This document shows positions 13,165 through 28,600 of a stretch of 35,021 bases of DNA, piece by piece. Where the stretch lies: assembly GCA_019594025.1 (NCBI GenBank), contig JAFDUB010000003.1:1-35021 (forward strand). Direction: 5' to 3'. A model generated the notes under the pieces. That model worked only from the letters and a program-made list of their open reading frames with translations, had not been told where the DNA came from and ran no database searches. Made by a program: the position numbers and the translations under genes. The stretch is from Thermoplasmata archaeon (GTDB lineage: Archaea > Thermoplasmatota > Thermoplasmata > Halarchaeoplasmatales > Halarchaeoplasmataceae). Each line of letters opens with the position of its first letter. Positions within the stretch are counted from its first letter, which is position 1.

Positions 13165-14241
13165 TCATCTAGGCTCAAGAGCGTCTTCAGGGCATATCTC
13201 GGCGCAGCAGTAGCATCTGATGCACTTCCACCAACTTATCTTGGGATACTGATTCATCTTGATGGCATCCTCGGGACATATCCTCATACACTCTCCGCAG
13301 GAGATGCACTTATCAGCATATAAATTCGGCCTTTTCATGTACAGGTTCGCCATCACACCACCAAAGGTTTCAGGCAACCACCAGGGTGTAGACCCACCTT
13401 CGGGGTAATTTACATTTACCTCACTCGGTAGTTCTCCTACAACATCGATATCCGAAAGTTTTACCTCCCTGAACAAAGGCACTTTTGATGTATCGATACC
13501 CACTGCTTTACACGCCATATAATCCAGGGCCGGAGCGTCGGTAGATGCAAGGATAATTGATAATTTAACAGGATCTCCTCCAGCAGGCCCCTTTCCTTCC
13601 ATACCTACGATCCCGTCCATTATGGATATGTCTGGTGAAACTGCATCGTGTACGTCCAAAAGCATCCTGTTAAACGTTTTCATCCCTTTGTACTGTCCGT
13701 GAAATGCGGACTTCATGAGTCCGGGAACCATTCCGTAGGTGTTCTTTACCGCACCTGTAAATACCGTTAGTGAATGGGTTTTGAGTTTCGGTAGGTTGAC
13801 CACCAAATCCGCATCATTGCATACATTCATCACCGGAACTGATTTGAGTACCCGCCCTTCAGGTAAAGGTACGTGAGAATATGACAAGTCGTAGTTCAAA
13901 ACCGCATCGGTTTCTTCTGGTATCCTAGTCCAAATCGATTTCTCATAACATCTTTTCAAGAATTTTTTCGAACTCGGTCCACCTGGGCTATCACCTACGA
14001 TCACTTTCATACCTGCATCCTCTAACTCCCGTATAACTGCTATAATAAATTCGGGATGAGTGGTAACCGCTTTCTCAGGGGGAGCACCCTTCAGTAGATT
14101 CGGCTTTACCAGTGCGGTACCACCAGAAAAAGTTAATTTCTTAAATGGTAAGAATATGCTTTTAACGCTGCCCTGCACATTTTGATAATCACCGCATCTT
14201 CTTACGTGAACCTCAGCCATATACTCTTCACCACTGCTCAA
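13165..14241 (-). CDS. DUF362 domain protein with C-terminal 2x[4Fe-4S] ferredoxin domain
   Basis: 'VKPNL', 'TTHP', 'NLPKLKTH', 'GAVKN', 'MEG.GP'; two CxxCxxCxxxCP motifs; real start may be the second Met. Confidence 0.9.
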   Translation of the reverse strand: MSSGEEYMAEVHVRRCGDYQNVQGSVKSIFLPFKKLTFSGGTALVKPNLLKGAPPEKAVTTHPEFIIAVIRELEDAGMKVIVGDSPGGPSSKKFLKRCYEKSIWTRIPEETDAVLNYDLSYSHVPLPEGRVLKSVPVMNVCNDADLVVNLPKLKTHSLTVFTGAVKNTYGMVPGLMKSAFHGQYKGMKTFNRMLLDVHDAVSPDISIMDGIVGMEGKGPAGGDPVKLSIILASTDAPALDYMACKAVGIDTSKVPLFREVKLSDIDVVGELPSEVNVNYPEGGSTPWWLPETFGGVMANLYMKRPNLYADKCISCGECMRICPEDAIKMNQYPKISWWKCIRCYCCAEICPEDALEPR

Positions 14242-14951
14242 GAAGGTATGGGTATGAACTCACAGTAGCCTATATCATCCGCCTTTTTCTTTAAATCGTC
14301 CCAATACTTTATGTAATGTGCGGCCACCGGATAAAATAGGTGATCCTCTATGAATTTATGGTGATGAAGTGAATAGATAAGAGCATTTAACTCTCTAATA
14401 AGTTGGTATCTGTTTTCAGTGCCATTATCAAACAGTTCTTCGAGCCTATCCCGTCTTTCAACAAAATCATTGTGCTCTTTAGCCAGCATATTCAAACGTC
14501 CTTCCATCTCATTTCCTAAAACTCTTCTTAACTCGACAAAAAGAGTTTGCTCTTCCCTGTTAATATGCAAAGTGATCTGGTATAGGTTGTCTATAACCGT
14601 GCATATCACCTTGTCTTCCATGAAATACGCCTTACTACGTAGTGAGGAGGATATTTTGTCGAGTGAAGATAAAAATTCTCCAATCTTTTCATGCTCTTTT
14701 ATAAACGGAAGAACCGGGTGTCCTTCCTCTAACTGCTCCTGGAGCTTCTTCGACTCACCTTGAAGTAACTCCACGTAAAGTTTGCCGATCTCTTTTATAT
14801 CCGCTTCCTTCAAACCGTCGGCCATCAACTCTATCTCAGCCAGGTAGAGATTTATGGTCGGTACTCCCTCCAGCGCCTCTAGAGCGTCCTCCTTGGTAAT
14901 CACGTTGAAGTGATATCCTTTCAACACGTCTATCACATCGTCTACTTCCAT
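14238..14951 (-). CDS. Hemerythrin-like (DUF438-type) protein
   Basis: 'GHPV..F..EH', 'H..REE..LF', 'EH', 'H...ED..FYP' hemerythrin/HHE pattern. Confidence 0.7.
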   Translation of the reverse strand: MEVDDVIDVLKGYHFNVITKEDALEALEGVPTINLYLAEIELMADGLKEADIKEIGKLYVELLQGESKKLQEQLEEGHPVLPFIKEHEKIGEFLSSLDKISSSLRSKAYFMEDKVICTVIDNLYQITLHINREEQTLFVELRRVLGNEMEGRLNMLAKEHNDFVERRDRLEELFDNGTENRYQLIRELNALIYSLHHHKFIEDHLFYPVAAHYIKYWDDLKKKADDIGYCEFIPIPS

Positions 14952-14954
14952 AGA

Positions 14955-15599
14955 TTACTCCACAAAGTGTACCACCACTTTTTCAACGTCCCACATAGGC
15001 TCTATCTTCTCTTTGATATCCTCTTTGATAGCGTTGGCGAATTGATGGTCTTCTGTTAAATCTACATGGATATCCACAACACCTTCTTCAACCGATATAT
15101 CGTGAATTAGGTCTGTTCGGATCACGTCCAAACCGGTCATAGGATTCATAACACGCTTCAATCTTTTCTCAACTACCTCCGGTGTAGTAGGCTCTTTTTC
15201 CTTCACCAAACCGTGTCTTTCTTCGTAATCCCTGATAGCACTTCTTAATCCGTCGATAGCTAAAACCGAGCAGTGTGCCTTTATAGGTGGTAAACCACCC
15301 AATTCATCGGCGGCGTCTTCCCAAGTTATCTTCTTCGCCTCTTCTACGGTCTTCCCCTTGGCCATCTCGGTTATTATTGAACCGGTAGCTATGTTGGAAG
15401 CGCATCCGTAGGATTCAAACTTAACATCGGTTATGGTCTGTGTCTCCTGATCCACCTTTATGTAAACCTTGACCATGTCCCCACAGGCCGGACTGCCTTC
15501 CTGTGCCTTTCCATCAGGATCGTCTATCTTTCCTACGTTTTTTGGATTTTTGAAGTATTCGATTACTTTCTCGCTGTACGGTAAACCCATATCTATCAC
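14955..15599 (-). CDS. iscU: IscU/NifU-type Fe-S scaffold fused to a C-terminal DUF59-like domain
   Basis: 'YSEKV..YF.NPKNVG', 'ACGD', 'YGCASNIA', 'LPPIKAHCS'; tail 'LKRVMNPMTGLDVI...LIHDISV'; likely start ATG 15590. Confidence 0.9.
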   Translation of the reverse strand: MIDMGLPYSEKVIEYFKNPKNVGKIDDPDGKAQEGSPACGDMVKVYIKVDQETQTITDVKFESYGCASNIATGSIITEMAKGKTVEEAKKITWEDAADELGGLPPIKAHCSVLAIDGLRSAIRDYEERHGLVKEKEPTTPEVVEKRLKRVMNPMTGLDVIRTDLIHDISVEEGVVDIHVDLTEDHQFANAIKEDIKEKIEPMWDVEKVVVHFVE

Positions 15600-16750
15600 T
15601 CCTTTCCTAGAGGGCTTATCTCCCTCAATCTTTCTACTACCTCTTTAATGTTATCTACAACATAATCAACATCATCCTGAGTACTGTATCTACCCAAGGA
15701 GAATCTAACAGAACCGTGGGCCCTTTCGTGGTCTCCACCGATACCCATTATCACGTGACTTGCCTCTAGCGAGCGGCTGAAACACGCGGATCCGGTGCTC
15801 ACGGCAACTCCCCTCATATCCATATGAAGTGTGATGGATTCACCCTCCACATAATGGAAGGTGATATTGGCGTTCTGAGGTATACGCTCTTCTCTAGCTC
15901 CGTTCAAGGTGGTATCAGGTATCTCTTTTAACACCCTGTCGATGATCCGATCTCTCAATTCCTTTATCCTGTCGTTCTCTTCCTTGGTCACAAGCTCAAC
16001 AGCTTTGGCAAAACCGACAGCACCGGGTATATTCTCCAGTCCACCTCGTTTGTCGAACTCCTGAAAACCTCCATCCATCTGCTTTTTTATGTTGATTCCA
16101 TCGCGCAAGTAAAGGGCGCCTATTCCCTTGGGTCCATGGATGGTATGAGCAGATAAAGTGATCAAATCGGCGGGGATCTCGTTCACATCCAAGGGAATAC
16201 GTGTGAACGTGTGAGTTGCATCGGTGTGAAAGAACACTCCTGCATCTTTACATATCTCTGCGAGCTTTTTTATATCCTGAAGGGTACCGATCTCCTGGTT
16301 GGCGTGCTGTATGGATACCAGCACTGTGTCATCCCTTATTTCTTCTTTTAAATCATCAGGATCGATAAATCCTTCATCGTCTACAGTTAGGTATGAAACA
16401 TCATATCCTGCTTTTTCAAGTGTTCTAGCGCTGTGAAGTACGGAAAAATCTTCAATATCGGATATTATCAGATGTCCATCATTAGCGGACAAAACACCTT
16501 TCAAAGCAAGGTTACTCGACTCCGCCGACCCGGATGTGAACACTATCTCCTGTGGGCTAGCCCCGATATTTTCCGCGATCGACTTTCTAGCACCATCCAA
16601 ACCTTCCTTTGACTCGACACCCATGGAATGTCCGAATTCGGACGTAGCTACTGCGTACTTATCGAAAAAATACGGTTCCATAGCCTCCATCACTCTTTCG
16701 TCGAGGCACGTACTTGAAGCGTTATCCATATATACTTTCTTTCTTGACAC
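15596..16750 (-). CDS. iscS: IscS/NifS-like protein with non-canonical PLP site
   Basis: 'YMDNA', 'EIVFTSG', 'HTDA', 'GPKG.GAL', 'STGSAC', 'SVRFSLG'; GTG start 16750 after GGTGA RBS; SAHT instead of SAHK. Confidence 0.85.
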   Translation of the reverse strand: MSRKKVYMDNASSTCLDERVMEAMEPYFFDKYAVATSEFGHSMGVESKEGLDGARKSIAENIGASPQEIVFTSGSAESSNLALKGVLSANDGHLIISDIEDFSVLHSARTLEKAGYDVSYLTVDDEGFIDPDDLKEEIRDDTVLVSIQHANQEIGTLQDIKKLAEICKDAGVFFHTDATHTFTRIPLDVNEIPADLITLSAHTIHGPKGIGALYLRDGINIKKQMDGGFQEFDKRGGLENIPGAVGFAKAVELVTKEENDRIKELRDRIIDRVLKEIPDTTLNGAREERIPQNANITFHYVEGESITLHMDMRGVAVSTGSACFSRSLEASHVIMGIGGDHERAHGSVRFSLGRYSTQDDVDYVVDNIKEVVERLREISPLGKE

Positions 16751-16761
16751 TTTTATCACCT

Positions 16762-17190
16762 TTATAGGAATAGTGTAATATCGGACTCCCTGGCCTCCTT
16801 TATATATGTTCCGACGGCGCAGTAGTCACCTATCAGATCACGGTCCAAATCCTCTCTTTTCACACCCATTATATCCATGGTCATATCGCATGCCAGGACT
16901 TTACCGCCTAGTTCGATATAATCATCCATGAGGTCTTTCAACGAACGAACATTCGCCTTCTTCATCTTTCTCTTAACCATCCACTTTCCCAGTCCAAGCA
17001 TATTCATACGAGATAGCGGTCCTTTTTCTAAGCGACCTTTTTTCAACCTATCTAGCCCCCAGAATGTAAAGTATATCGATACGTCCATACCCATAGATAG
17101 AGCGCCTGTACCTACCACAAGCGCACTGTATAGTCTATCGTAATAACCGCTCTGCATAATTATCGTCGCTTTATCAGCCATCCGCATCAC
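16762..17190 (-). CDS. DsrE2/DrsH-like sulfur carrier protein
   Basis: 'IYFTFWGL', 'ACDMTMDIMG' with conserved Cys, 'ITLFL' terminus. Confidence 0.85.
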   Translation of the reverse strand: MMRMADKATIIMQSGYYDRLYSALVVGTGALSMGMDVSIYFTFWGLDRLKKGRLEKGPLSRMNMLGLGKWMVKRKMKKANVRSLKDLMDDYIELGGKVLACDMTMDIMGVKREDLDRDLIGDYCAVGTYIKEARESDITLFL

Positions 17191-17422
17191 CAGGTATCTT
17201 TATAGTTATCTTCCATTTATCGTCCTTTTGTTCAACACTAATAAGCTCCAATCCTAGTGATTCTACGGCCATGGGTATCTCATCCTTTGAAGGAGGATGA
17301 TTTCCAACGATCTCGATAATATCTCCCGCTTCAGCTTTTCGGATAGCCTTCCTTGTTTCTACCAAAGGTACAGGGCATGTTTCCCCTGTTACGTTTATCT
17401 TAATCGTCTTTTTTTCTTCCAT
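17174..17422 (-). CDS. tusA: TusA family sulfurtransferase
   Basis: 'GETCPVPLV' CPxP motif; ATG 17422 follows GGGGT RBS (ORF track starts at 17449). Confidence 0.88.
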   Translation of the reverse strand: MEEKKTIKINVTGETCPVPLVETRKAIRKAEAGDIIEIVGNHPPSKDEIPMAVESLGLELISVEQKDDKWKITIKIPGDADG

Positions 17423-17551
17423 TTGATTACCCCTTATCTGATAGTTCATGTGGATTATTAGTTTTCCCTAGGTTATAAACACTATAAGGTGATTATAGTA
17501 TTTATACTTTTAGTTCCAAAAAGATTATATCCTGTTATACACATTGTTAAT

Positions 17552-20500
17552 ATGGATGGAAACAGCATGAAAGTTTTTCTTGTGAGCGGGGATATCGAGT
17601 TCCTAAAAAGTGCAAAGGACTTCCTTGAAAAGAAGACGGAGGACTTAAATGTAGATACCTCTGGTTCTCCTGAAAAAGCGTTAAAGAAAATATCACGAGG
17701 AAAGTACGATATCGTGGTTTCAACATACTTCACCGATAAAGAAATGGACTGCTTAGATTTCTTAGTGAAACTAAAGAGAATTAACGATGATATATCAATC
17801 ATAATGATTTCAAGGGAGAAAGAAGAGAAGATTGCAGTAAAAGCTTTGGAACTTGGTGCGGAAAGGAACATTTTCGGTACAGGTTCAAAAGAAATACAGA
17901 TGATCACCCTCTTTAGAGCTATCGAGAATGAGCTTGAGTTGAAGCAGGTTCAGAGGGAACTAAAGGAATCGGAACGCCTCTATAAAGGTATGTATGACTC
18001 CATGCTAGTGCTATCCAAACACGACGATCTAGATTACCTGCTGGCGACGATAGCTTATGAAGTCAAATCCTTACTGGGCGCCACCGATTGTAATATACAT
18101 TTTTACGACGAGGATGAAGAGCTGTTACGTCCGATCTATTCAAACCACCCAAAATATTCTGAAGAAATAATGAAACATCCTATACCCCTGGGCGAAGGTC
18201 TTACTGGTATGGTTGCTGAAGACGGTGTTGGCAGATACTTAAATTATGACGACCCAGATCACGTCTCGATTCACGTTCCCGATACCGATTTGGAGGAGGA
18301 GGAACTGGAATCCATAATGGTGGTACCTCTTTGGGACTACGACAAGCTGTTAGGGGCGATGTCTGTAGGAAAACTAGAGGATACCTTTGACGATTATGAC
18401 ATGAGCAAACTGAATCTTTTTGCAAGGCAGGTAGAGATAGCTTTAATAAAGGCCAGGCATATAAAAGATCTAAAAAAATCTCGTAAAAAACTGTTCCAAG
18501 AAAAGGAACGTATTAAAAAAATCCACGACATCGCAATCAAAATGAAAAGTATACGTTCAGAGGAAGAATTATACCCGATGATAATCGATTCTGTCCGGGA
18601 AATCCTCGATTTCTATGTCTGCAGCCTCGATCTCCTGGAGGACGGAGAATTTGAGGTAAAAGCCACCATGGGAGGGGTAAATAAGAAGGGAGATAGATAT
18701 CCTGTAGAAGGTGTCGCTGGTGAAACCCTAAAAATGAATAGGTCGTATATCATAGATGATGTCCAGGGTTCGAGGATGGCAAAACCCAAACGGAAAAATT
18801 ATCTTTCCGCTATAAGCGTGCCGATAGGTGACTTCGGTGTGTTTCAGGCCCTTTCAAAGAGAAAAAACGACTTCTCTCAAGAGGATTTGGATATTACCGA
18901 ACTACTCATGGCCCACGTCACCCAAACTCTCATAAGACTTCGTAATTTTAGAAAAGTGAAAGAGAGTGAAGAAAAATTTAAAGCTTTGTCCGAGAACAGC
19001 CCCTTCGCAATATTTGTTTATCGGGAAAAATTCCTCTACGTCAACGATGCCAGTGAGGAGTTGACAGGATATTCAAAAATGGAAATGCTCAACAGACACT
19101 TCTGGGAGGTGGTACACCCAGATCATCGAGAGATGGTAAAAGAAAGAGGCTTTGCTCGGCTAAGAGGCGAAGATGTCGCCCCACGTTATGAGTTCAAGAT
19201 AGTAAAAAAAGACGGAACCCCCCGATGGATATATTTCACAGGGAGTAAGATTAACTTTGAAGGCGAAAGTGCGGGACTCGGCACCGCAATCGATATAACC
19301 GAGAGGAAGGAAACCGAGGAAGCTTTGAAGGAAACTAATCGTAAACACATCACATTGATCGAGAACCTTCCCGGTATCGCTTATAGGTGCAAAAACGTTA
19401 AAAACTATACCATGGAATTTTTAAGCGAAGCCTGTACAAAACTGACAGGATACCAGCCTGATGATTTTGTGAACGACAAGAAACTGGCCTTTAAAGATAT
19501 CATACATCCTGAGGATAGAGAGTATGTATGGAGGTCAATCCAAGAGGCTGTAGAAAAAAGAGAATCTTTCGAAATAGAGTATAGAATAATCACAGATGAC
19601 AATGAAGAAAGATGGATATGGGAGCAGGGAAGAGCGGTTGAATTTCCCAAAGATGGGCCGGAGATACTAGAAGGGATAATAACAGATATCACAGAGCAAA
19701 AGATATCGGAGGCATTATTGAAGGAGAGAGAAGAAAAGTACCGAACTATCTTTGAATGCGCAGATGATGCAATATTCGTAATGAAAGATGATATATTCAT
19801 CGACTGTAACGTAAAAACGTTGGACATATTTCAATGTTCTCGTGATGATATTGTGGACGAACCACCATATAAATTTTCCCCGCCAAAACAACCCGATGGT
19901 AGAGATTCCAAAGAAAAGGCCTTGGAAAAGATAAACGCCGCCCTTTCCGGCAAACCTCAGTTATTTGAGTGGGTACACACAACAATGGCGGGTGAACGAT
20001 TTTATGCGGAAGTTAACCTGAATCGGTACAAAATAAACGATGAACTGTACATCATGGCTATAGTTCGTGATATCTCCGAGCAAAAACAAGCCGAAAAAGA
20101 ACTGCGGGAATACAAAGATCAATTGGAAGAGATGGTGGAAGAGAGAACCGCGGCGCTAAGGGATGCCAATATCGAGTTGAAGGCATTTACTCATTCTATG
20201 TCCCATGATCTAAAAGCACCTCTGAGGGCTATACAAGGATTCACTAGAGAATTAATGAAAGAACAAAAGGAGGGGTTGGACCAAGACGGTGTAGAGTGTC
20301 TCAAACGGATACATAAGGCCTCCGTAAGGATGAATACCCTAATCGAGGATCTGCTACGGTATAGTGAGGTATCCAAGGAGAAGAGGGCGCTTACCCAGGT
20401 ATCGCTGAACGAAGTATTAAAAGAAACCATCCAAGATTTTGAAGAAGTTATAGAAGAGAAAAATGCCATAGTTTCCATAGAGGGGAAAATGCCTGTGGTT

Positions 20501-20845
20501 ATGGGAAGGTACTCGACCATGGTCCAGATATTCTCAAACCTGCTATCCAATGCCCTTAAATTCGTCGAGGATGGCCAGTCCCCGGAGATTAAGATTTATG
20601 CCGAAAGTAGTGAAGACGTCGTACGTATATGGGTGCAAGACAAGGGCATAGGTATTCCTGAAGAACGTCACGATGAAATATTCCATCTTTTCGAAAGACT
20701 CCATGGCCGAGAAATTTATCCCGGGACGGGCATAGGTTTATCCATAGTTAATAAAGCGGTTGAGAAGATGGAGGGGAAAGTTGGTGTTGAATCGAAATCG
20801 GGGGAAGGAAGTAAATTCTGGGTCGAACTCGTTCCTTATCGATAA
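17552..20845 (+). CDS. Hybrid sensor histidine kinase: pseudo-REC, GAF, GAF, 3xPAS, HisKA, HATPase
   Basis: H-box 'SHDLKAPLRAI', N-box 'NLLSNALKF', G1 'DKGIGI', 'FERLH', G2 'GTGIGL'; PAS 'VHPDHR', 'IHPEDR', 'DITE'; TATA-like TTATAT about 25 nt before ATG 17552. Confidence 0.92.
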   Translation: MDGNSMKVFLVSGDIEFLKSAKDFLEKKTEDLNVDTSGSPEKALKKISRGKYDIVVSTYFTDKEMDCLDFLVKLKRINDDISIIMISREKEEKIAVKALELGAERNIFGTGSKEIQMITLFRAIENELELKQVQRELKESERLYKGMYDSMLVLSKHDDLDYLLATIAYEVKSLLGATDCNIHFYDEDEELLRPIYSNHPKYSEEIMKHPIPLGEGLTGMVAEDGVGRYLNYDDPDHVSIHVPDTDLEEEELESIMVVPLWDYDKLLGAMSVGKLEDTFDDYDMSKLNLFARQVEIALIKARHIKDLKKSRKKLFQEKERIKKIHDIAIKMKSIRSEEELYPMIIDSVREILDFYVCSLDLLEDGEFEVKATMGGVNKKGDRYPVEGVAGETLKMNRSYIIDDVQGSRMAKPKRKNYLSAISVPIGDFGVFQALSKRKNDFSQEDLDITELLMAHVTQTLIRLRNFRKVKESEEKFKALSENSPFAIFVYREKFLYVNDASEELTGYSKMEMLNRHFWEVVHPDHREMVKERGFARLRGEDVAPRYEFKIVKKDGTPRWIYFTGSKINFEGESAGLGTAIDITERKETEEALKETNRKHITLIENLPGIAYRCKNVKNYTMEFLSEACTKLTGYQPDDFVNDKKLAFKDIIHPEDREYVWRSIQEAVEKRESFEIEYRIITDDNEERWIWEQGRAVEFPKDGPEILEGIITDITEQKISEALLKEREEKYRTIFECADDAIFVMKDDIFIDCNVKTLDIFQCSRDDIVDEPPYKFSPPKQPDGRDSKEKALEKINAALSGKPQLFEWVHTTMAGERFYAEVNLNRYKINDELYIMAIVRDISEQKQAEKELREYKDQLEEMVEERTAALRDANIELKAFTHSMSHDLKAPLRAIQGFTRELMKEQKEGLDQDGVECLKRIHKASVRMNTLIEDLLRYSEVSKEKRALTQVSLNEVLKETIQDFEEVIEEKNAIVSIEGKMPVVMGRYSTMVQIFSNLLSNALKFVEDGQSPEIKIYAESSEDVVRIWVQDKGIGIPEERHDEIFHLFERLHGREIYPGTGIGLSIVNKAVEKMEGKVGVESKSGEGSKFWVELVPYR

Positions 20846-25209: not shown

Positions 25210-26487
25210 TTAAACGAGTTTTTGCTTTTTTCCGATATCCATCATCACGAAGCCGGAGTTTACCTTGGGGTAAAAATCCGTGGACTTCTCGGGCATACGT
25301 TCACCGTTCTTCGCGGCTCTTAGAACCTGCTCGGGTCTTGTAGCGTTTACCAGGAACGCAGCGGTCGCATTACCTGTTTTAACTTTGTTTACCGCGTCCT
25401 CAGCCCACCTTTCGTAGGATATTGTCTCGTCTATGTCCAGTTTCCCGGTCTTCATTATTCCTTCGAAGATAACGTCTCGAAGGACAACCACGTCTAGACT
25501 CTTGTAATCCTCCGAATAATCGTCTGGTAAGAATTTCTCGATGGAAGAACGGTCCTTTAGTCTTAGACCTATGTTTCTTCCCCCATCGTAAACTACGAAG
25601 GCGGTGGTGTCTTTGTTCTTAGTGAGGAATTCGTCGCTATTTTCCACATCACTTACATCGAAGTATTCTTCCATATCGTTTAAGTGCTCTTCGGTTAATT
25701 TATGCTCCAGAAGAAGTCTGTGTCCTGGGAGTACGACTAAACCCGGATCCTCCACAGGTACCATGTAGGTCATCCTGAAGTTGAAAGCCGAGTCCTCGGC
25801 CCAATCCGTTTTTCCTCTGGTTTCGTCTCTGTAGGTAACAGCGGTTTCATATCTATGATGTCCGTCGGCGATAACCACCTGCTGGTCTTTCAACACCTCT
25901 TGAATTTTCTTAATATCCGATAGCGATTCAATTCTCCATACCTGACTTTTTACACCGTATTCGTCTTCAACTTCGAATTCGGGTTCGTTCTTGGAGATTT
26001 CATCGAATATTTCGATGGTTTTTTGTTCTGGATCGCTGTACAGCATGAATCCCGGTTCAAGATTTTTCTCAGTAGCACTGAGCATGTTCAGCCTGTCGAT
26101 CTTTGGACCTTTATGGGTCTGCTCATGAGGTAGTACCACTCCTTCTTCGAAAGGATATAATTTAACTGCGGATATGAACCCCTTTCGTGTGTACCTCTTT
26201 CCCAGCACCTCGAATTCCTGGTAATAGACATAGATACACGGTTTTTTATCGGGGACGAGTACGTTTTCCTTGAGCCAGTTATTAAGTCTCTCAGCTGCGG
26301 CTTTGTATCGCTCTTCCTCCTTGGGTAAGATCAAACGGCAGAAGTTGTACTCACTTTTACCGTAGTACTTATCTTGAAGTTCCGGTGGGATCTTGTCGTA
26401 AGGTTGTGTTATCACTTTTTCCATAGAACCTATTTTCTCTTCGTCGTAATGTATACCGGGAAAGGGACGGATCTCTACCATGATCAT
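25210..26487 (-). CDS. DUF1015 family protein
   Basis: 'IRPF.G', 'PYD', 'LPHE.T', 'IADGHHRYETA', 'MPEKST.FYPK'. Confidence 0.92.
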   Translation of the reverse strand: MIMVEIRPFPGIHYDEEKIGSMEKVITQPYDKIPPELQDKYYGKSEYNFCRLILPKEEERYKAAAERLNNWLKENVLVPDKKPCIYVYYQEFEVLGKRYTRKGFISAVKLYPFEEGVVLPHEQTHKGPKIDRLNMLSATEKNLEPGFMLYSDPEQKTIEIFDEISKNEPEFEVEDEYGVKSQVWRIESLSDIKKIQEVLKDQQVVIADGHHRYETAVTYRDETRGKTDWAEDSAFNFRMTYMVPVEDPGLVVLPGHRLLLEHKLTEEHLNDMEEYFDVSDVENSDEFLTKNKDTTAFVVYDGGRNIGLRLKDRSSIEKFLPDDYSEDYKSLDVVVLRDVIFEGIMKTGKLDIDETISYERWAEDAVNKVKTGNATAAFLVNATRPEQVLRAAKNGERMPEKSTDFYPKVNSGFVMMDIGKKQKLV

Positions 26488-27407
26488 CCCCTTTTCTTAA
26501 GCTCGGCGATAACTTTTTCTGCTGCCTGTGTTCCTGCTCTCGCTTGTCCTTCCAAGGTCTGTCCGCCTATGTGGGGCGTTGCGTGGAAGTTATCAAGGGT
26601 GAGCAGGGGATTATCTCCCGGAGGTTCCTCGGCGAAAACGTCCTTGCTGGCGAATCTTATTTCACCATCTGTTAGGGCCTCATAGAGTGCATCCTCATCA
26701 ACTACACCGCCGCGTGAACAATCGACCAATACAGCGGATTCCTTCATCTTCTTGAATTCTTCGGAGCTAAGTAGATGATGTGTCGAATCGATATGAGGTA
26801 CGTGGAGAGTGATGAAGTCGCTTTCGGTTATGATCGTATCGAAGTCGACCATCTTAGCAGGTCCGGGTTCATCTACGTCGATAACATCGAATGCTATCAC
26901 GTTCATACCGAATGCGTCAGATCTTTTGGCAACTTCATGACCGATATTACCGTATCCGATTATACCTAGTGTCTTTCCGTAGATCTCGTTGCTTTTCAAG
27001 TCCTTCTTTATCCACTTTCCTTCCCTGAGGCTGATGGTGCCGGCGACTATATTCCTATAAGCGGCGAACATGTGGGTAAATACCAACTCGGCTACGGAGA
27101 TTGTTGTAGCGGTAGGAGTGTTATATACGGCAATTCCTTTGTCCTTGGCATAATCAACATCGATATTATCCAAGCCGATACCCGGTCTACCGATCACCTC
27201 TAGGTTTTCTGCCGTATCTAGGGTCGGTTCTCCGACCTTGGTGGAACCGCGTACGATCATCGCATGATAAGGGGGTACCTTTTTGGTCAATTCTTCTTTG
27301 GACATCCCAAACTCTTGATCTACTTCAAGTCCAGCTTCTTCCAGCATCTCTATGCCTTCGTCGGCGATGGGGTTGCAAACCAGTACTTTTTTGTTCATAT
27401 GTATCAC
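26484..27407 (-). CDS. serA: D-2-hydroxyacid dehydrogenase, short phosphoglycerate dehydrogenase-like (no ACT domain)
   Basis: 'G.GLDNID', 'GIIGYGNIG', 'RGGVVDE', 'DVF.EEP', 'TPHIG'; likely start ATG 27398. Confidence 0.75.
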   Translation of the reverse strand: MIHMNKKVLVCNPIADEGIEMLEEAGLEVDQEFGMSKEELTKKVPPYHAMIVRGSTKVGEPTLDTAENLEVIGRPGIGLDNIDVDYAKDKGIAVYNTPTATTISVAELVFTHMFAAYRNIVAGTISLREGKWIKKDLKSNEIYGKTLGIIGYGNIGHEVAKRSDAFGMNVIAFDVIDVDEPGPAKMVDFDTIITESDFITLHVPHIDSTHHLLSSEEFKKMKESAVLVDCSRGGVVDEDALYEALTDGEIRFASKDVFAEEPPGDNPLLTLDNFHATPHIGGQTLEGQARAGTQAAEKVIAELKKRG

Positions 27408-28486
27408 AGCCCTGCTACTTCTTCTATGGCATCGGTGAGCTCTTTTACATCCTCTACGGAGTGCTCTCCCATGTGACCGATACGGAAGGTCTTTTCTTTC
27501 AGCTGTTTTCCATATCCATTCGAGAAGAGGATACCGTATTTCTCATCGATCTCCTGACGGAGTTCATTTATGTTCAATCCCTGGGTGTTTTTGATCGTAC
27601 TGACTGTTTGTGACCCGTAACCTGCTTCTGGGAACATCTCGAAGTGTTTTTTAGCCCATTTTTGGGTGTACTCCGCCATATCTTTGTGCCTTTGATCTCT
27701 CGCTTTATGGCCTTCTTCAAGCATGCGTTCCATCTGTTTTCTGTAAGCAAGCATCAATGAGATTGCCGGAGTGGAGTGGGTTTGACCTTTCTTGTTATAG
27801 TAATCTATGTTCCTTTGGAAACCTGCATACCATGAAGCAGAATCTGAGTTTGCCTCTCGCTCGTATGCCTTATCATTTACCACGCAAACAGCTAATCCTG
27901 GAGGCATGGCAAAGGCCTTCTGCACGGAGGTGAATATGACATCGATATTGCTTCCTTCTATGTCTATGTAATCCCCTCCTAATGCGGATATTGCGTCCAC
28001 TATGAATAAAGTGTCCGGGAAGTCTTTCATTACCTCTCCTATCTCCTCTAGTGGATTTCTTATACCGGTGGATGTCTCGTTCATTACACAGGTGAAGGCG
28101 TCGTAGTCTTTTTTCTCCAATGCCTCCCTCACATCTTTCGGTTTCACCGCTTTACCCCATTCATACTCCAGTCTATCGACGTTTTTTCCAAGACGTTCTG
28201 CGATATCCGCCTGCCTTTGAGAAAAACTTCCGCAGGTCGAACAAAGAACTCTGTCGTCGACGCAATTCATTATGGAGCTCTCCATGAAGAGCGTGCCGGA
28301 TGTGGACAGAATTATTACGTCGTTCTCAGTACCGAGAAACTTTTTAGTGTCCTCGGTCATAGTAGTGAACAACTCAGTCATCGTTGGAGAACGGTGACCG
28401 AACATCCATGCTTCCATTTCATCTATTATTTCCTTCTTGACCTCAGTGGGTCCCGGGATGAATAATTTCGTGTGTTTATCTTTCAC
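27404..28486 (-). CDS. Class V PLP aminotransferase (serine-pyruvate/phosphoserine aminotransferase-like)
   Basis: 'LFIPGPT', 'GHRS', 'NETSTG', 'VDAIS', 'SVQKAFAMPPG' (PLP Lys intact), 'FRIGHMG'; GTG 28486 after GGTGG RBS (ORF track start 28507). Confidence 0.88.
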   Translation of the reverse strand: MKDKHTKLFIPGPTEVKKEIIDEMEAWMFGHRSPTMTELFTTMTEDTKKFLGTENDVIILSTSGTLFMESSIMNCVDDRVLCSTCGSFSQRQADIAERLGKNVDRLEYEWGKAVKPKDVREALEKKDYDAFTCVMNETSTGIRNPLEEIGEVMKDFPDTLFIVDAISALGGDYIDIEGSNIDVIFTSVQKAFAMPPGLAVCVVNDKAYEREANSDSASWYAGFQRNIDYYNKKGQTHSTPAISLMLAYRKQMERMLEEGHKARDQRHKDMAEYTQKWAKKHFEMFPEAGYGSQTVSTIKNTQGLNINELRQEIDEKYGILFSNGYGKQLKEKTFRIGHMGEHSVEDVKELTDAIEEVAGL

Positions 28487-28600
28487 ATACACCACCTGAT
28501 TCGGCATACAAAGATAATGTATATAATGGTTGTGTTTTTTCGAATCAAGTCCAACACATTTTTATATCTCACATACCTCCCTTTGTATTGGTGGAAACCC

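Follow-up and report, generated by a model that had tools for sequence, protein, structure and literature searches.

What does a cysteine desulfurase homologue do when the lysine that should hold its cofactor, pyridoxal phosphate (PLP), is missing? The question is posed by a gene on contig JAFDUB010000003.1 of a Thermoplasmata archaeon (Halarchaeoplasmatales, Halarchaeoplasmataceae; assembly GCA_019594025.1), of which positions 1 to 35,021 on the forward strand form the window analysed here. The gene lies at 15596..16750 on the minus strand and encodes a Lys-less protein of the IscS/NifS type (384 aa, 42.3 kDa; Pfam Aminotran_5), for which we use the working name IscS*. How sulfur is fed into the iron-sulfur (Fe-S) clusters of strict anaerobes, and what role a 'dead' IscS may have, are unsettled questions that the IscS* family touches. 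We find that IscS* belongs to a cassette of genes for TusA, a DsrE2-like protein, IscS* and a fusion of IscU with a DUF59 domain (IscU::DUF59), which is common to many anaerobic archaea and bacteria. The reading that we prefer, and to which we give an even chance, is that IscS* is a PLP-free partner of IscU whose loop cysteine would relay sulfur from TusA and the DsrE2-like protein.

The cofactor site of IscS*

In canonical desulfurases PLP is contacted, besides the Schiff-base Lys, by a stacking His, the Asn of an NNE motif, the Gln of DAxQ and the Thr of RxGT. Residues of IscS* are numbered here from a GTG at 16759, the start of the longest open frame (subtracting 3 gives the number in the 384-aa protein), and the position names H104, N155, D180, Q183, K206 and T243 follow the numbering of Escherichia coli IscS. 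A first-pass annotation, made from the sequence alone, had claimed that Thr replaces the PLP Lys, that EDFSV, DATH, RGGL and NQE mark further changes, and that the loop Cys of STGSAC and the SVRFS motif are retained. These readings held when the Thr codon was recomputed and the protein was aligned to 9wep, a solved desulfurase that bears the Lys: SAHT of IscS* pairs with SAHK, EDFS with EHHS, DATH with DAVQ, NQE with NNE and RGGL with RAGT.

Conservation was read from an alignment of close homologues, built from the 120 best proteins of a 5.8-billion-protein collection (66-100% identical to IscS*) and comprising 121 rows, two of which are the contig's own protein. Thr206 (SAHTIHGPKG; codon ACC at 16142..16144, on the minus strand like all codons given here) fills the Lys column in 117 rows, the others having Ala (2), Leu (1) or Ile (1). 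The stacking His position is taken by Asp104-Phe105 of IEDFSV (16445..16450; Asp GAT at 16448-16450), with Asp in 116 rows and Asn in 5, and Phe in 121/121. Gln155 of HANQE (16295..16297), at the second Asn of NNE, is invariant (121/121), and His183 of DATH (16211..16213) replaces the canonical Gln in 120 rows, the remaining one having Gln. Leu241 of RGGL (16037-16039) stands at the Thr of RxGT in a column that is aliphatic in 119/121 rows (Leu 84, Ile 20, Val 12, Met 3; Pro and Phe once each). The loop Cys (Cys326; codon TGT, 15782..15784; STGSACFS) and the Arg of SVRFS (15704-15706) are each found in 121/121 rows, and the family also keeps Asp in HTDA and both Ser and His in SxH.

These departures are real deviations from the family norm, since canonical residues are the rule among the 150 best representatives of clusters at 50% identity: Lys in 131 (and none in 19), the stacking His in 141, Asn in 129, Gln in 130 and Thr in 135. 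The stacking His is present in 99% of Lys-bearing relatives, and the pocket signature of IscS* occurs in only two of the 150, P0122 and the fragment P0125. A comparison of 120 family members with 116 Lys-bearing representatives identified positions that are conserved in both groups yet different (A36, V37, T39, the inserted E41-F42, Y44, D104, Q151, Q155, H183, T206, A247, I337 and G339) and others conserved in the IscS* family only (E52, L54, F105, F185, H302, S308, H312, M315, H344, R346, I381, L384 and K226, the last being Lys in 99% of family rows and in 5% of Lys-bearing relatives). Because these family-specific positions are conserved, the PLP pocket appears from the alignments to have been rebuilt, not left to drift. 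From its residues we infer that IscS* can no longer hold PLP through an internal aldimine and hence is most probably unable to desulfurate cysteine.

IscS* also misses the NCBIfam equivalog cut-offs (445.1 against 530.75 for NifS, TIGR03402; 377.7 against 643.2 for IscS, TIGR02006), and its close homologues are named 'cysteine desulfurase (family protein)' in public sources. The first-pass annotation had suggested a conserved non-desulfurase mislabelled by automated annotation; the near-invariant replacements, the scores, the names and the selection described below all fit this suggestion, and IscS* may be read as a pseudo-desulfurase whose catalysis has probably been lost.

In one alternative PLP would still be bound, either non-covalently or through another Lys such as K226, and desulfurase activity would persist. 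The conserved, family-specific K226 speaks for such an enzyme, as do the pyridine-N Asp, Ser and His in SxH, Arg and loop Cys, all of them retained. Yet five PLP contacts have changed in concert, among them the stacking His and the Thr with which the partner subunit binds the phosphate, loss of the Lys has recurred in the wider clade (with Leu, Thr, Pro and others in its place), and IscS* lies under the equivalog cut-offs; we regard a surviving PLP enzyme as very unlikely. The same residues bear on a further alternative, in which the former PLP site has acquired a new partner, either another ligand or a metal such as Fe(II), coordinated for example by His183 and His205 together with Asp104 or Asp180; IscS* would then donate iron or catalyse sulfur chemistry of a new kind. 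The replacements are near-invariant and not drifting (D104, F105, Q151, Q155, H183, T206), E41-F42 is inserted, H302, H312, H344 and R346 are invariant in the family only, and Asp180, His205 and the substrate Arg are retained. This proposal is drawn from the pattern of residues, no precedent for it was found, and the bulky hydrophobic residues F42, F105, F185, F232 and F235 (GGFQEF) fit a plain filling of the pocket equally well; we hold it to be improbable.

The fold itself is predicted to be retained. Pfam PF00266 (Aminotran_5) matches residues 9-367 (8e-71), as expected of a full-length protein of the class-V aminotransferase fold, and the best solved relatives are cysteine desulfurases, led by 9wep (349 bits) and the IscS2 of Archaeoglobus fulgidus (4eb5; 336 bits), with human NFS1 and E. 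coli IscS matching at 305-317 bits. An AlphaFold2 model built from a 150-row alignment has a mean pLDDT of 95.3 and a pTM of 0.93, its sole low-confidence stretch being the Cys loop (residues 323-326); it replaced a weak earlier model from 29 close homologues (mean pLDDT 65). Foldseek aligned it to NFS1, E. coli IscS and A. fulgidus IscS structures with TM-scores of 0.92-0.96.

Neither an error nor decay explains the missing lysine. On the minus strand the open frame runs unbroken to 15596, whether it is started at 16759 or at 16750. Of the two starts, the GTG at 16750 that the first-pass annotation had adopted is the likelier, because a Shine-Dalgarno-like AGGTGA lies just upstream and the N-terminus that it yields, M-x4-VY-x-DNA, agrees with the homologue consensus; word and spacer span 16751..16762 on the minus strand (AGGTGA 16757-16762, GTG 16748-16750) and begin directly after the stop codon of the DsrE2-like gene. 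Purifying selection is strong, with a dN/dS of 0.066 relative to the nearest orthologue, L009 (90% amino-acid identity, dS 0.78), and of 0.041 relative to L010, and column identity averages 78% over 29 archaeal and bacterial members. The first-pass annotation had named this ratio as a check, and its value argues against decay.

It had also argued that a sequencing error was unlikely because AAA or AAG must undergo two base changes to become ACC, and both homologues and public reads agree: Logan contigs from two runs span the Thr codon with 0 differences (15899-16638 and 16077-16565), at a depth of about 4, both runs being of one study and one of them possibly the source sample. The contrary prospect that it raised, close homologues that all have Lys, is not what the 121 rows contain, since 117 have Thr. 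A sequencing or assembly error is thus rejected on the Thr column and the identical two-run contigs, and a recent pseudogene or dying gene on the intact frame, the dN/dS of 0.066 and the at least 403 related places in species genomes described below. Nothing but the low depth of the public reads speaks for an artefact or a dying gene, a reading to which we attach next to no weight.

A four-gene cassette

The IscS* gene is the third of six co-directional genes, all of which abut or overlap. Upstream of it lie the genes for TusA (17174..17422, minus, with an open reading frame (ORF) listed from 17449; Pfam TusA 2.7e-21) and for the DsrE2-like sulfur carrier (16762..17181, minus, ORF listed from 17190; Pfam DrsE_2 2.8e-35). 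The TusA start at ATG 17420-17422, preceded by AAGGGG, agrees with homologues, while the ATG at 17179-17181 fits the N-terminus of DsrE2-like homologues and overlaps the end of the TusA gene; at 64 bits the DsrE2-like protein does not reach the NCBIfam DsrE2 cut-off of 210. Downstream, the start of the IscU::DUF59 gene (14955..15599, minus; 214 aa, 23.9 kDa; NifU_N 2.2e-44, FeS_assembly_P, that is DUF59, 5.7e-13) overlaps the IscS* stop. Because the cassette genes overlap or abut, translational coupling is suggested. The cysteines on which sulfur transfer and cluster assembly would depend are kept: Cys25 in the CPxP motif of TusA in 73/75 rows (the other 2 are gapped), Cys101 of the DsrE2-like protein in 78/78, and, in IscU, Cys39 and Cys66 in 73/73 and Cys110 in 70/73.

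When one genome per species was scanned, at least 403 related places were confirmed among at least 598 pattern matches, and linkage was counted in the best 80 of these at least 403 loci, from 80 genomes, which were searched with the proteins of the window. The 80 loci comprise 55 bacterial and 25 archaeal ones and cover at least 8 phyla: Chloroflexota (32), Bacillota (10), Thermodesulfobacteriota (6), Nitrospirota (3), Myxococcota (1) and 3 unplaced among the bacteria, and Methanobacteriota (17), Thermoplasmatota (6) and Hadarchaeota (2) among the archaea. Where the neighbourhood could be assessed, the DsrE2-like gene lies directly upstream in 76/79 loci, TusA upstream in 72/74, an IscU domain downstream in 66/72 and a DUF59 domain downstream in 66/72, and all four cassette genes occur together in 60/67. 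Two Anaerolineae loci (L011, L018) miss all three neighbours, and L053 has no DsrE2 directly upstream.

No fifth conserved cassette gene was found among the 440 flanking ORFs of the 80 loci, in which no other neighbour exceeds 10/80. The commonest of these, at 10/80 loci (for example L033:7513-9792), encodes a P-type ATPase that ends in a YHS domain; it follows the cassette on the same strand.

In the window the cassette is followed by genes for a hemerythrin-domain protein with a DUF438-like N-terminus (14238..14951, minus; Hemerythrin 1.8e-9; DUF438 22.3 bits, cut-off 25; a weak YtfE/RIC match at 2e-4) and, last of the co-directional block, a DUF362 protein with a C-terminal 2x[4Fe-4S] ferredoxin domain (13165..14241, minus; DUF362 7.1e-56, Fer4 1.8e-11). 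Among the 80 loci a downstream hemerythrin occurs only in the nearest Thermoplasmata, L009, L010 and L012, and DUF362 on the cassette strand only in L009 and L010, the two closest relatives, which have two hemerythrin genes downstream of the cassette. The pair is lineage-specific and outside the core cassette, and may represent an iron-handling or redox add-on.

On the other side, a hybrid sensor kinase of 1118 aa (REC, 2 GAF, several PAS, HisKA, HATPase; 17489-20845, plus) is divergent from the cassette and separated from it by about 40-70 bp; a PAS histidine kinase lies within 3 kb of the cassette in 7/80 other loci. An AT-rich, TATA-like word, AAAGTATAAATACT, at 17493-17507 (minus), some 45-70 nt upstream of two candidate TusA starts, is by eye a candidate archaeal promoter of the operon. 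No RNA runs were listed for 13165-17449 of the window among public runs. The remainder of the window holds ordinary archaeal housekeeping genes. A second, distant gene of the class-V aminotransferase fold (PF00266, 64 bits) lies with those of a D-2-hydroxyacid dehydrogenase and a DUF1015 protein (25210-28507, minus); this group looks like a serine-pathway-type trio and unrelated to IscS*.

Relation to known IscS systems and the wider clade

The closest described system is the isc1 cluster of Methanosarcina acetivorans. In the available text of Deere et al. 2020 (PMC7585200), IscS1 (MA0808, 42.2 kDa, loop STGSACFS) lacks PLP residues including the Lys, and its gene stands with those of IscU1 (MA0807, 24.2 kDa), a 'DrsE superfamily' protein (MA0809) and a 'SirA-like' protein (MA0810), flanked by MA0811 (HIT) and MA0806 (hypothetical). 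Since the sizes (42.3 and 23.9 kDa here) and the loop motif, which is identical to that printed in Table 1 of that paper, agree, and with SirA/TusA-like and DsrE-superfamily genes beside iscS and iscU in both and Methanosarcinales members in the family (P0104 from Methanococcoides, 69% identity; L053), IscS* is judged to belong to the IscS1 family. The two settings differ, in that M. acetivorans has SufBC and two Lys-bearing IscSU pairs whereas neither SufB/D nor a second IscU was found in the present genus, and the flanking genes are HIT and hypothetical there but hemerythrin and DUF362-ferredoxin here.

That IscS1 of M. acetivorans lacks the lysine has been in print since 2020, and its family is still uncharacterised. 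The passages of Deere 2020 at hand report the missing residues and insolubility only, with no function, family survey or pocket signature, and the parts available of Saini 2023 (PMC10500019), a 2024 preprint and a 2026 review hold nothing further on isc1. On the cassette, our literature search, in which subscription journals were not covered, turned up among the papers listed only Deere 2020 and, in Saini 2023, a brief reference to three IscSU copies.

The better known Lys-less protein is the IscS of A. fulgidus, which, in the passages available, contributes a Cys that ligates the IscU-bound [2Fe-2S] cluster (PMC7585200, PMC13066941). The first-pass annotation drew a parallel with it, of which one part stands: both are Lys-less proteins paired with IscU, and the A. 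fulgidus IscS2-IscU structures (PDB 4EB5, 4EB7, 4HVK; D199K variant 4R5F) share the type I fold and the loop Cys, with a TM-score of 0.93 to our model and a sequence score of 336 bits. The lineage and the set of changes are different, so that the parallel is one of analogy only. The A. fulgidus protein (4eb5) keeps the stacking His (EHMSV) and NNE, where IscS* has Asp-Phe and NQE; it reads DATA, SSND (Lys to Asp, His to Asn) and RSGS, where IscS* reads DATH, SAHT and RGGL; and it has lost the Arg (TLLLT) that IscS* keeps in SVRFS. Representatives of its type (P0144, P0196) are not among the 34 rows of the clade to which IscS* belongs, and the literature passages at hand mention no TusA, DsrE2 or DUF59 fusion in that system. 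An orthology of IscS* to A. fulgidus IscS is rejected on the substitution pattern of the 4eb5 alignment and on the trees; as a Lys-less IscS it is a variant that stands independent of the one in that organism.

The A. fulgidus precedent lends itself to a different reading of the cassette, in which IscS* is a structural partner only, holding IscU and offering its loop Cys as the fourth cluster ligand while sulfur arrives as free sulfide, with TusA and DsrE2 co-transcribed but serving another thiolation pathway. In the sources as far as available the only characterised Lys-less IscS is interpreted so; the loop Cys (121/121) and Cys39 and Cys66 of IscU (73/73) are invariant, Cys110 being present in 70/73; and the hosts, judged from record titles and soda-lake runs, are anaerobes of sulfidic habitats. 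What a purely structural role leaves unexplained is the near-obligate linkage to TusA (72/74) and DsrE2 (76/79) over at least 8 phyla. Furthermore, the TusA-DsrE2-IscS* trio persists in Methanobacterium without an adjacent IscU, and IscS* is not of the A. fulgidus lineage. We consider this, the main rival to the sulfur relay, rather unlikely.

Compared with the canonical IscS, NifS and NFS1 (1P3W; 3LVJ, IscS-TusA; 8RME), IscS* shares the fold (TM-score 0.92-0.96), an identity of 40-50%, the mobile SxGSAC loop and partners, IscU and TusA, of the same protein types. It differs in lacking the Schiff-base Lys and four other PLP contacts and in falling below the NCBIfam cut-offs, and the sulfur flow that we propose between IscS* and TusA would be the reverse of the canonical one. 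According to the available portions of the literature, TusA and DsrE proteins hand sulfur between their cysteines (PMC4175335, PMC11094781), and the cascades of sulfur oxidisers (Metallosphaera DsrE3A-TusA, PMC4175335; sHdr-associated TusA/DsrE3, PMC11094781) likewise place a CPxP-bearing TusA beside a Cys-bearing protein of the DsrE family. Here, in contrast, the carriers belong to an Fe-S assembly operon of anaerobes, with no Dsr or sHdr genes beside them in the window, and the DsrE2-like protein scores far under the NCBIfam DsrE2 cut-off.

The Lys has been lost more than once. On a FastTree phylogeny of 149 rows, its presence and absence require at least 7 changes, 4 of them forced by well-supported branches, and the IscS* family forms a clade with support of 99-100 on the trees. 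Relatives retrieved from metagenome contigs with the sister representative P0124 are arranged IscS - IscU::DUF59 - TusA (- DsrE2), and their pockets range from near-canonical through partly changed with Lys to Lys-less: L118, L122 and L124 bear the Lys and have only the Asn of NNE changed to Gln, L111, L113 and L119-L121 bear the Lys with two contacts changed, and L115-L117, L123, L106 and L107 are Lys-less with Leu. On a 90-row FastTree phylogeny these relatives and the IscS1 family form a single clade of 34 rows (support 99), in which the Lys is present in 12 rows and lost in 22, with at least 6 changes, and the canonical Asn155 is retained in no row. Two Lys-less groups each have Lys-bearing relatives as their sister, at a support of 100 (L115-117 with L111; L123 with L120/121). 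The DUF59 fusion is found at 13/18 clade loci, the 5 misses having little or no downstream DNA, against 0/45 loci outside the clade.

That the IscS* family lies within an IscU::DUF59-linked clade, with Lys-bearing members and several losses of the Lys, is new here. This pattern of 12 rows with the Lys and 22 without, over at least 6 changes, suggests that PLP chemistry is dispensable in the IscU::DUF59 context. An order of events in which IscU::DUF59 and TusA were linked first and the PLP chemistry became dispensable later is a reading and not a result, because FastTree joins long branches readily and the root was not inferred. A further Lys-less IscS clade was seen at metagenome loci L147-L169 (for example L153:3992-6033), with the signature H-S-D-A-D-Q-T-C-V (Lys to Gln, the His of SxH to Asp, Arg to Val); an IscU of about 186 aa adjoins, TusA is next in 3 loci, and on the tree the clade groups with neither the IscS1 family nor the A. 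fulgidus type.

Sulfur supply and Fe-S assembly in the genus

The assembly (1.58 Mb, 138 contigs, 80% complete) contains a single NifU_N match and a single TusA match, which are the IscU and the TusA of the cassette, and no match to SUFBD_core. As SUFBD_core is found in 0/5 assemblies of the genus, two of them 92% and 94% complete, and one long IscU in 4/5, the cassette IscU is the sole scaffold for Fe-S clusters that was found in this genus, an observation that is new here.

The genome also encodes Lys-bearing enzymes of class V. One, an IscS/NifS protein (contig C31, L002:1438-2580, minus; SGHKIYGPKG), has no IscU beside it and adjoins an archaeosine tRNA-guanine transglycosylase-like gene; it is patchy, being present in 2/4 genus mates and not found in the 94%-complete G004. 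The other, a SufS/Csd-like enzyme (contig C8, L001:504-1682, plus), is flanked by ThiF/MoeB-like and ThiI-like genes. A cysteine-independent system cannot be claimed for this genome, given these Lys-bearing enzymes.

We propose that the cassette probably builds Fe-S clusters from relayed sulfur. IscS* would dock on IscU as canonical IscS does, and its mobile loop Cys (15782-15784) would take sulfane sulfur not from cysteine but from the carrier cysteines of TusA and DsrE2; it would then hand the sulfur to IscU, act as a cluster ligand, or both, and the DUF59 domain would aid the handing-on of the cluster. The sulfur itself could come from the Lys-bearing class-V desulfurases elsewhere in the genome or from inorganic sulfur species. 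We favour this relay because the PLP site has been dismantled in a fixed way while the loop Cys and the SVRFS Arg are retained throughout (121/121), because selection is strong and the fold intact, because linkage to TusA, DsrE2 and IscU::DUF59 extends over at least 8 phyla with the carrier cysteines kept and the genes overlapping or abutting in the window, because the Lys was lost several times in the IscU::DUF59-linked clade, because the cassette has the one scaffold found in the genus, and because a Cys ligand in A. fulgidus and sulfur transfer by TusA and DsrE proteins are known from the literature.

Several observations weigh against it. K226 is a candidate for another Lys in the pocket, and with the substrate-carboxylate Arg and the pyridine-N Asp kept and several His newly invariant, the pattern of the pocket looks more like one that is re-used than one that is empty. 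IscU is not adjacent in four Methanobacterium loci (L061, L077, L078, L081) and two Anaerolineae loci; it is encoded elsewhere in 4/5 searched genomes without an adjacent IscU. 'Only scaffold' means the only one found, the assembly being 80% complete.

Nor is the cassette a substitute for cysteine desulfurases: the two Lys-bearing enzymes of the genome count on the same side, the C8-type enzyme being constant in the genus (4/4 genus mates, partial in one). A Lys-bearing IscS is likewise found in 4/5 other cassette genomes; in the fifth, a Methanofastidiosum assembly, only the Thr type was seen. Hence cysteine may still be the origin of the sulfur, and IscU could be supplied straight from a Lys-bearing IscS. 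As to relatives, M. acetivorans IscS1, in the available text, formed inclusion bodies in E. coli and was studied no further (PMC7585200), and in the accessible part of the 2024 preprint A. fulgidus iscS2U2 failed to rescue an Fe-S mutant of E. coli even when sulfide was supplied. The latter, though from another lineage, warns that such pairs may not be self-sufficient.

A bolder extension, in which the former PLP pocket is a new binding site next to the Cys loop, for instance for Fe(II), and the four proteins form a self-contained, desulfurase-free housekeeping Fe-S machine in lineages like this genus, with neither SufB/D nor another IscU found, we think decidedly improbable.

In the portions available of the published work, M. 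acetivorans is viable without SufBC and has normal Fe-S content without IscSU2 (PMC7585200, PMC10500019), and the MIS system is called the least studied system of Fe-S biogenesis (2026 review). Because automated annotation labels IscS* genes as cysteine desulfurase, metabolic reconstructions of anaerobes may over-count cysteine-dependent sulfur mobilisation. The fixed alternative pocket, tied in hundreds of genomes to two sulfur carriers and IscU::DUF59, makes of the family a defined set of four proteins with defined cysteines, for which M. acetivorans, with its isc1 cluster, offers a genetically tractable host.

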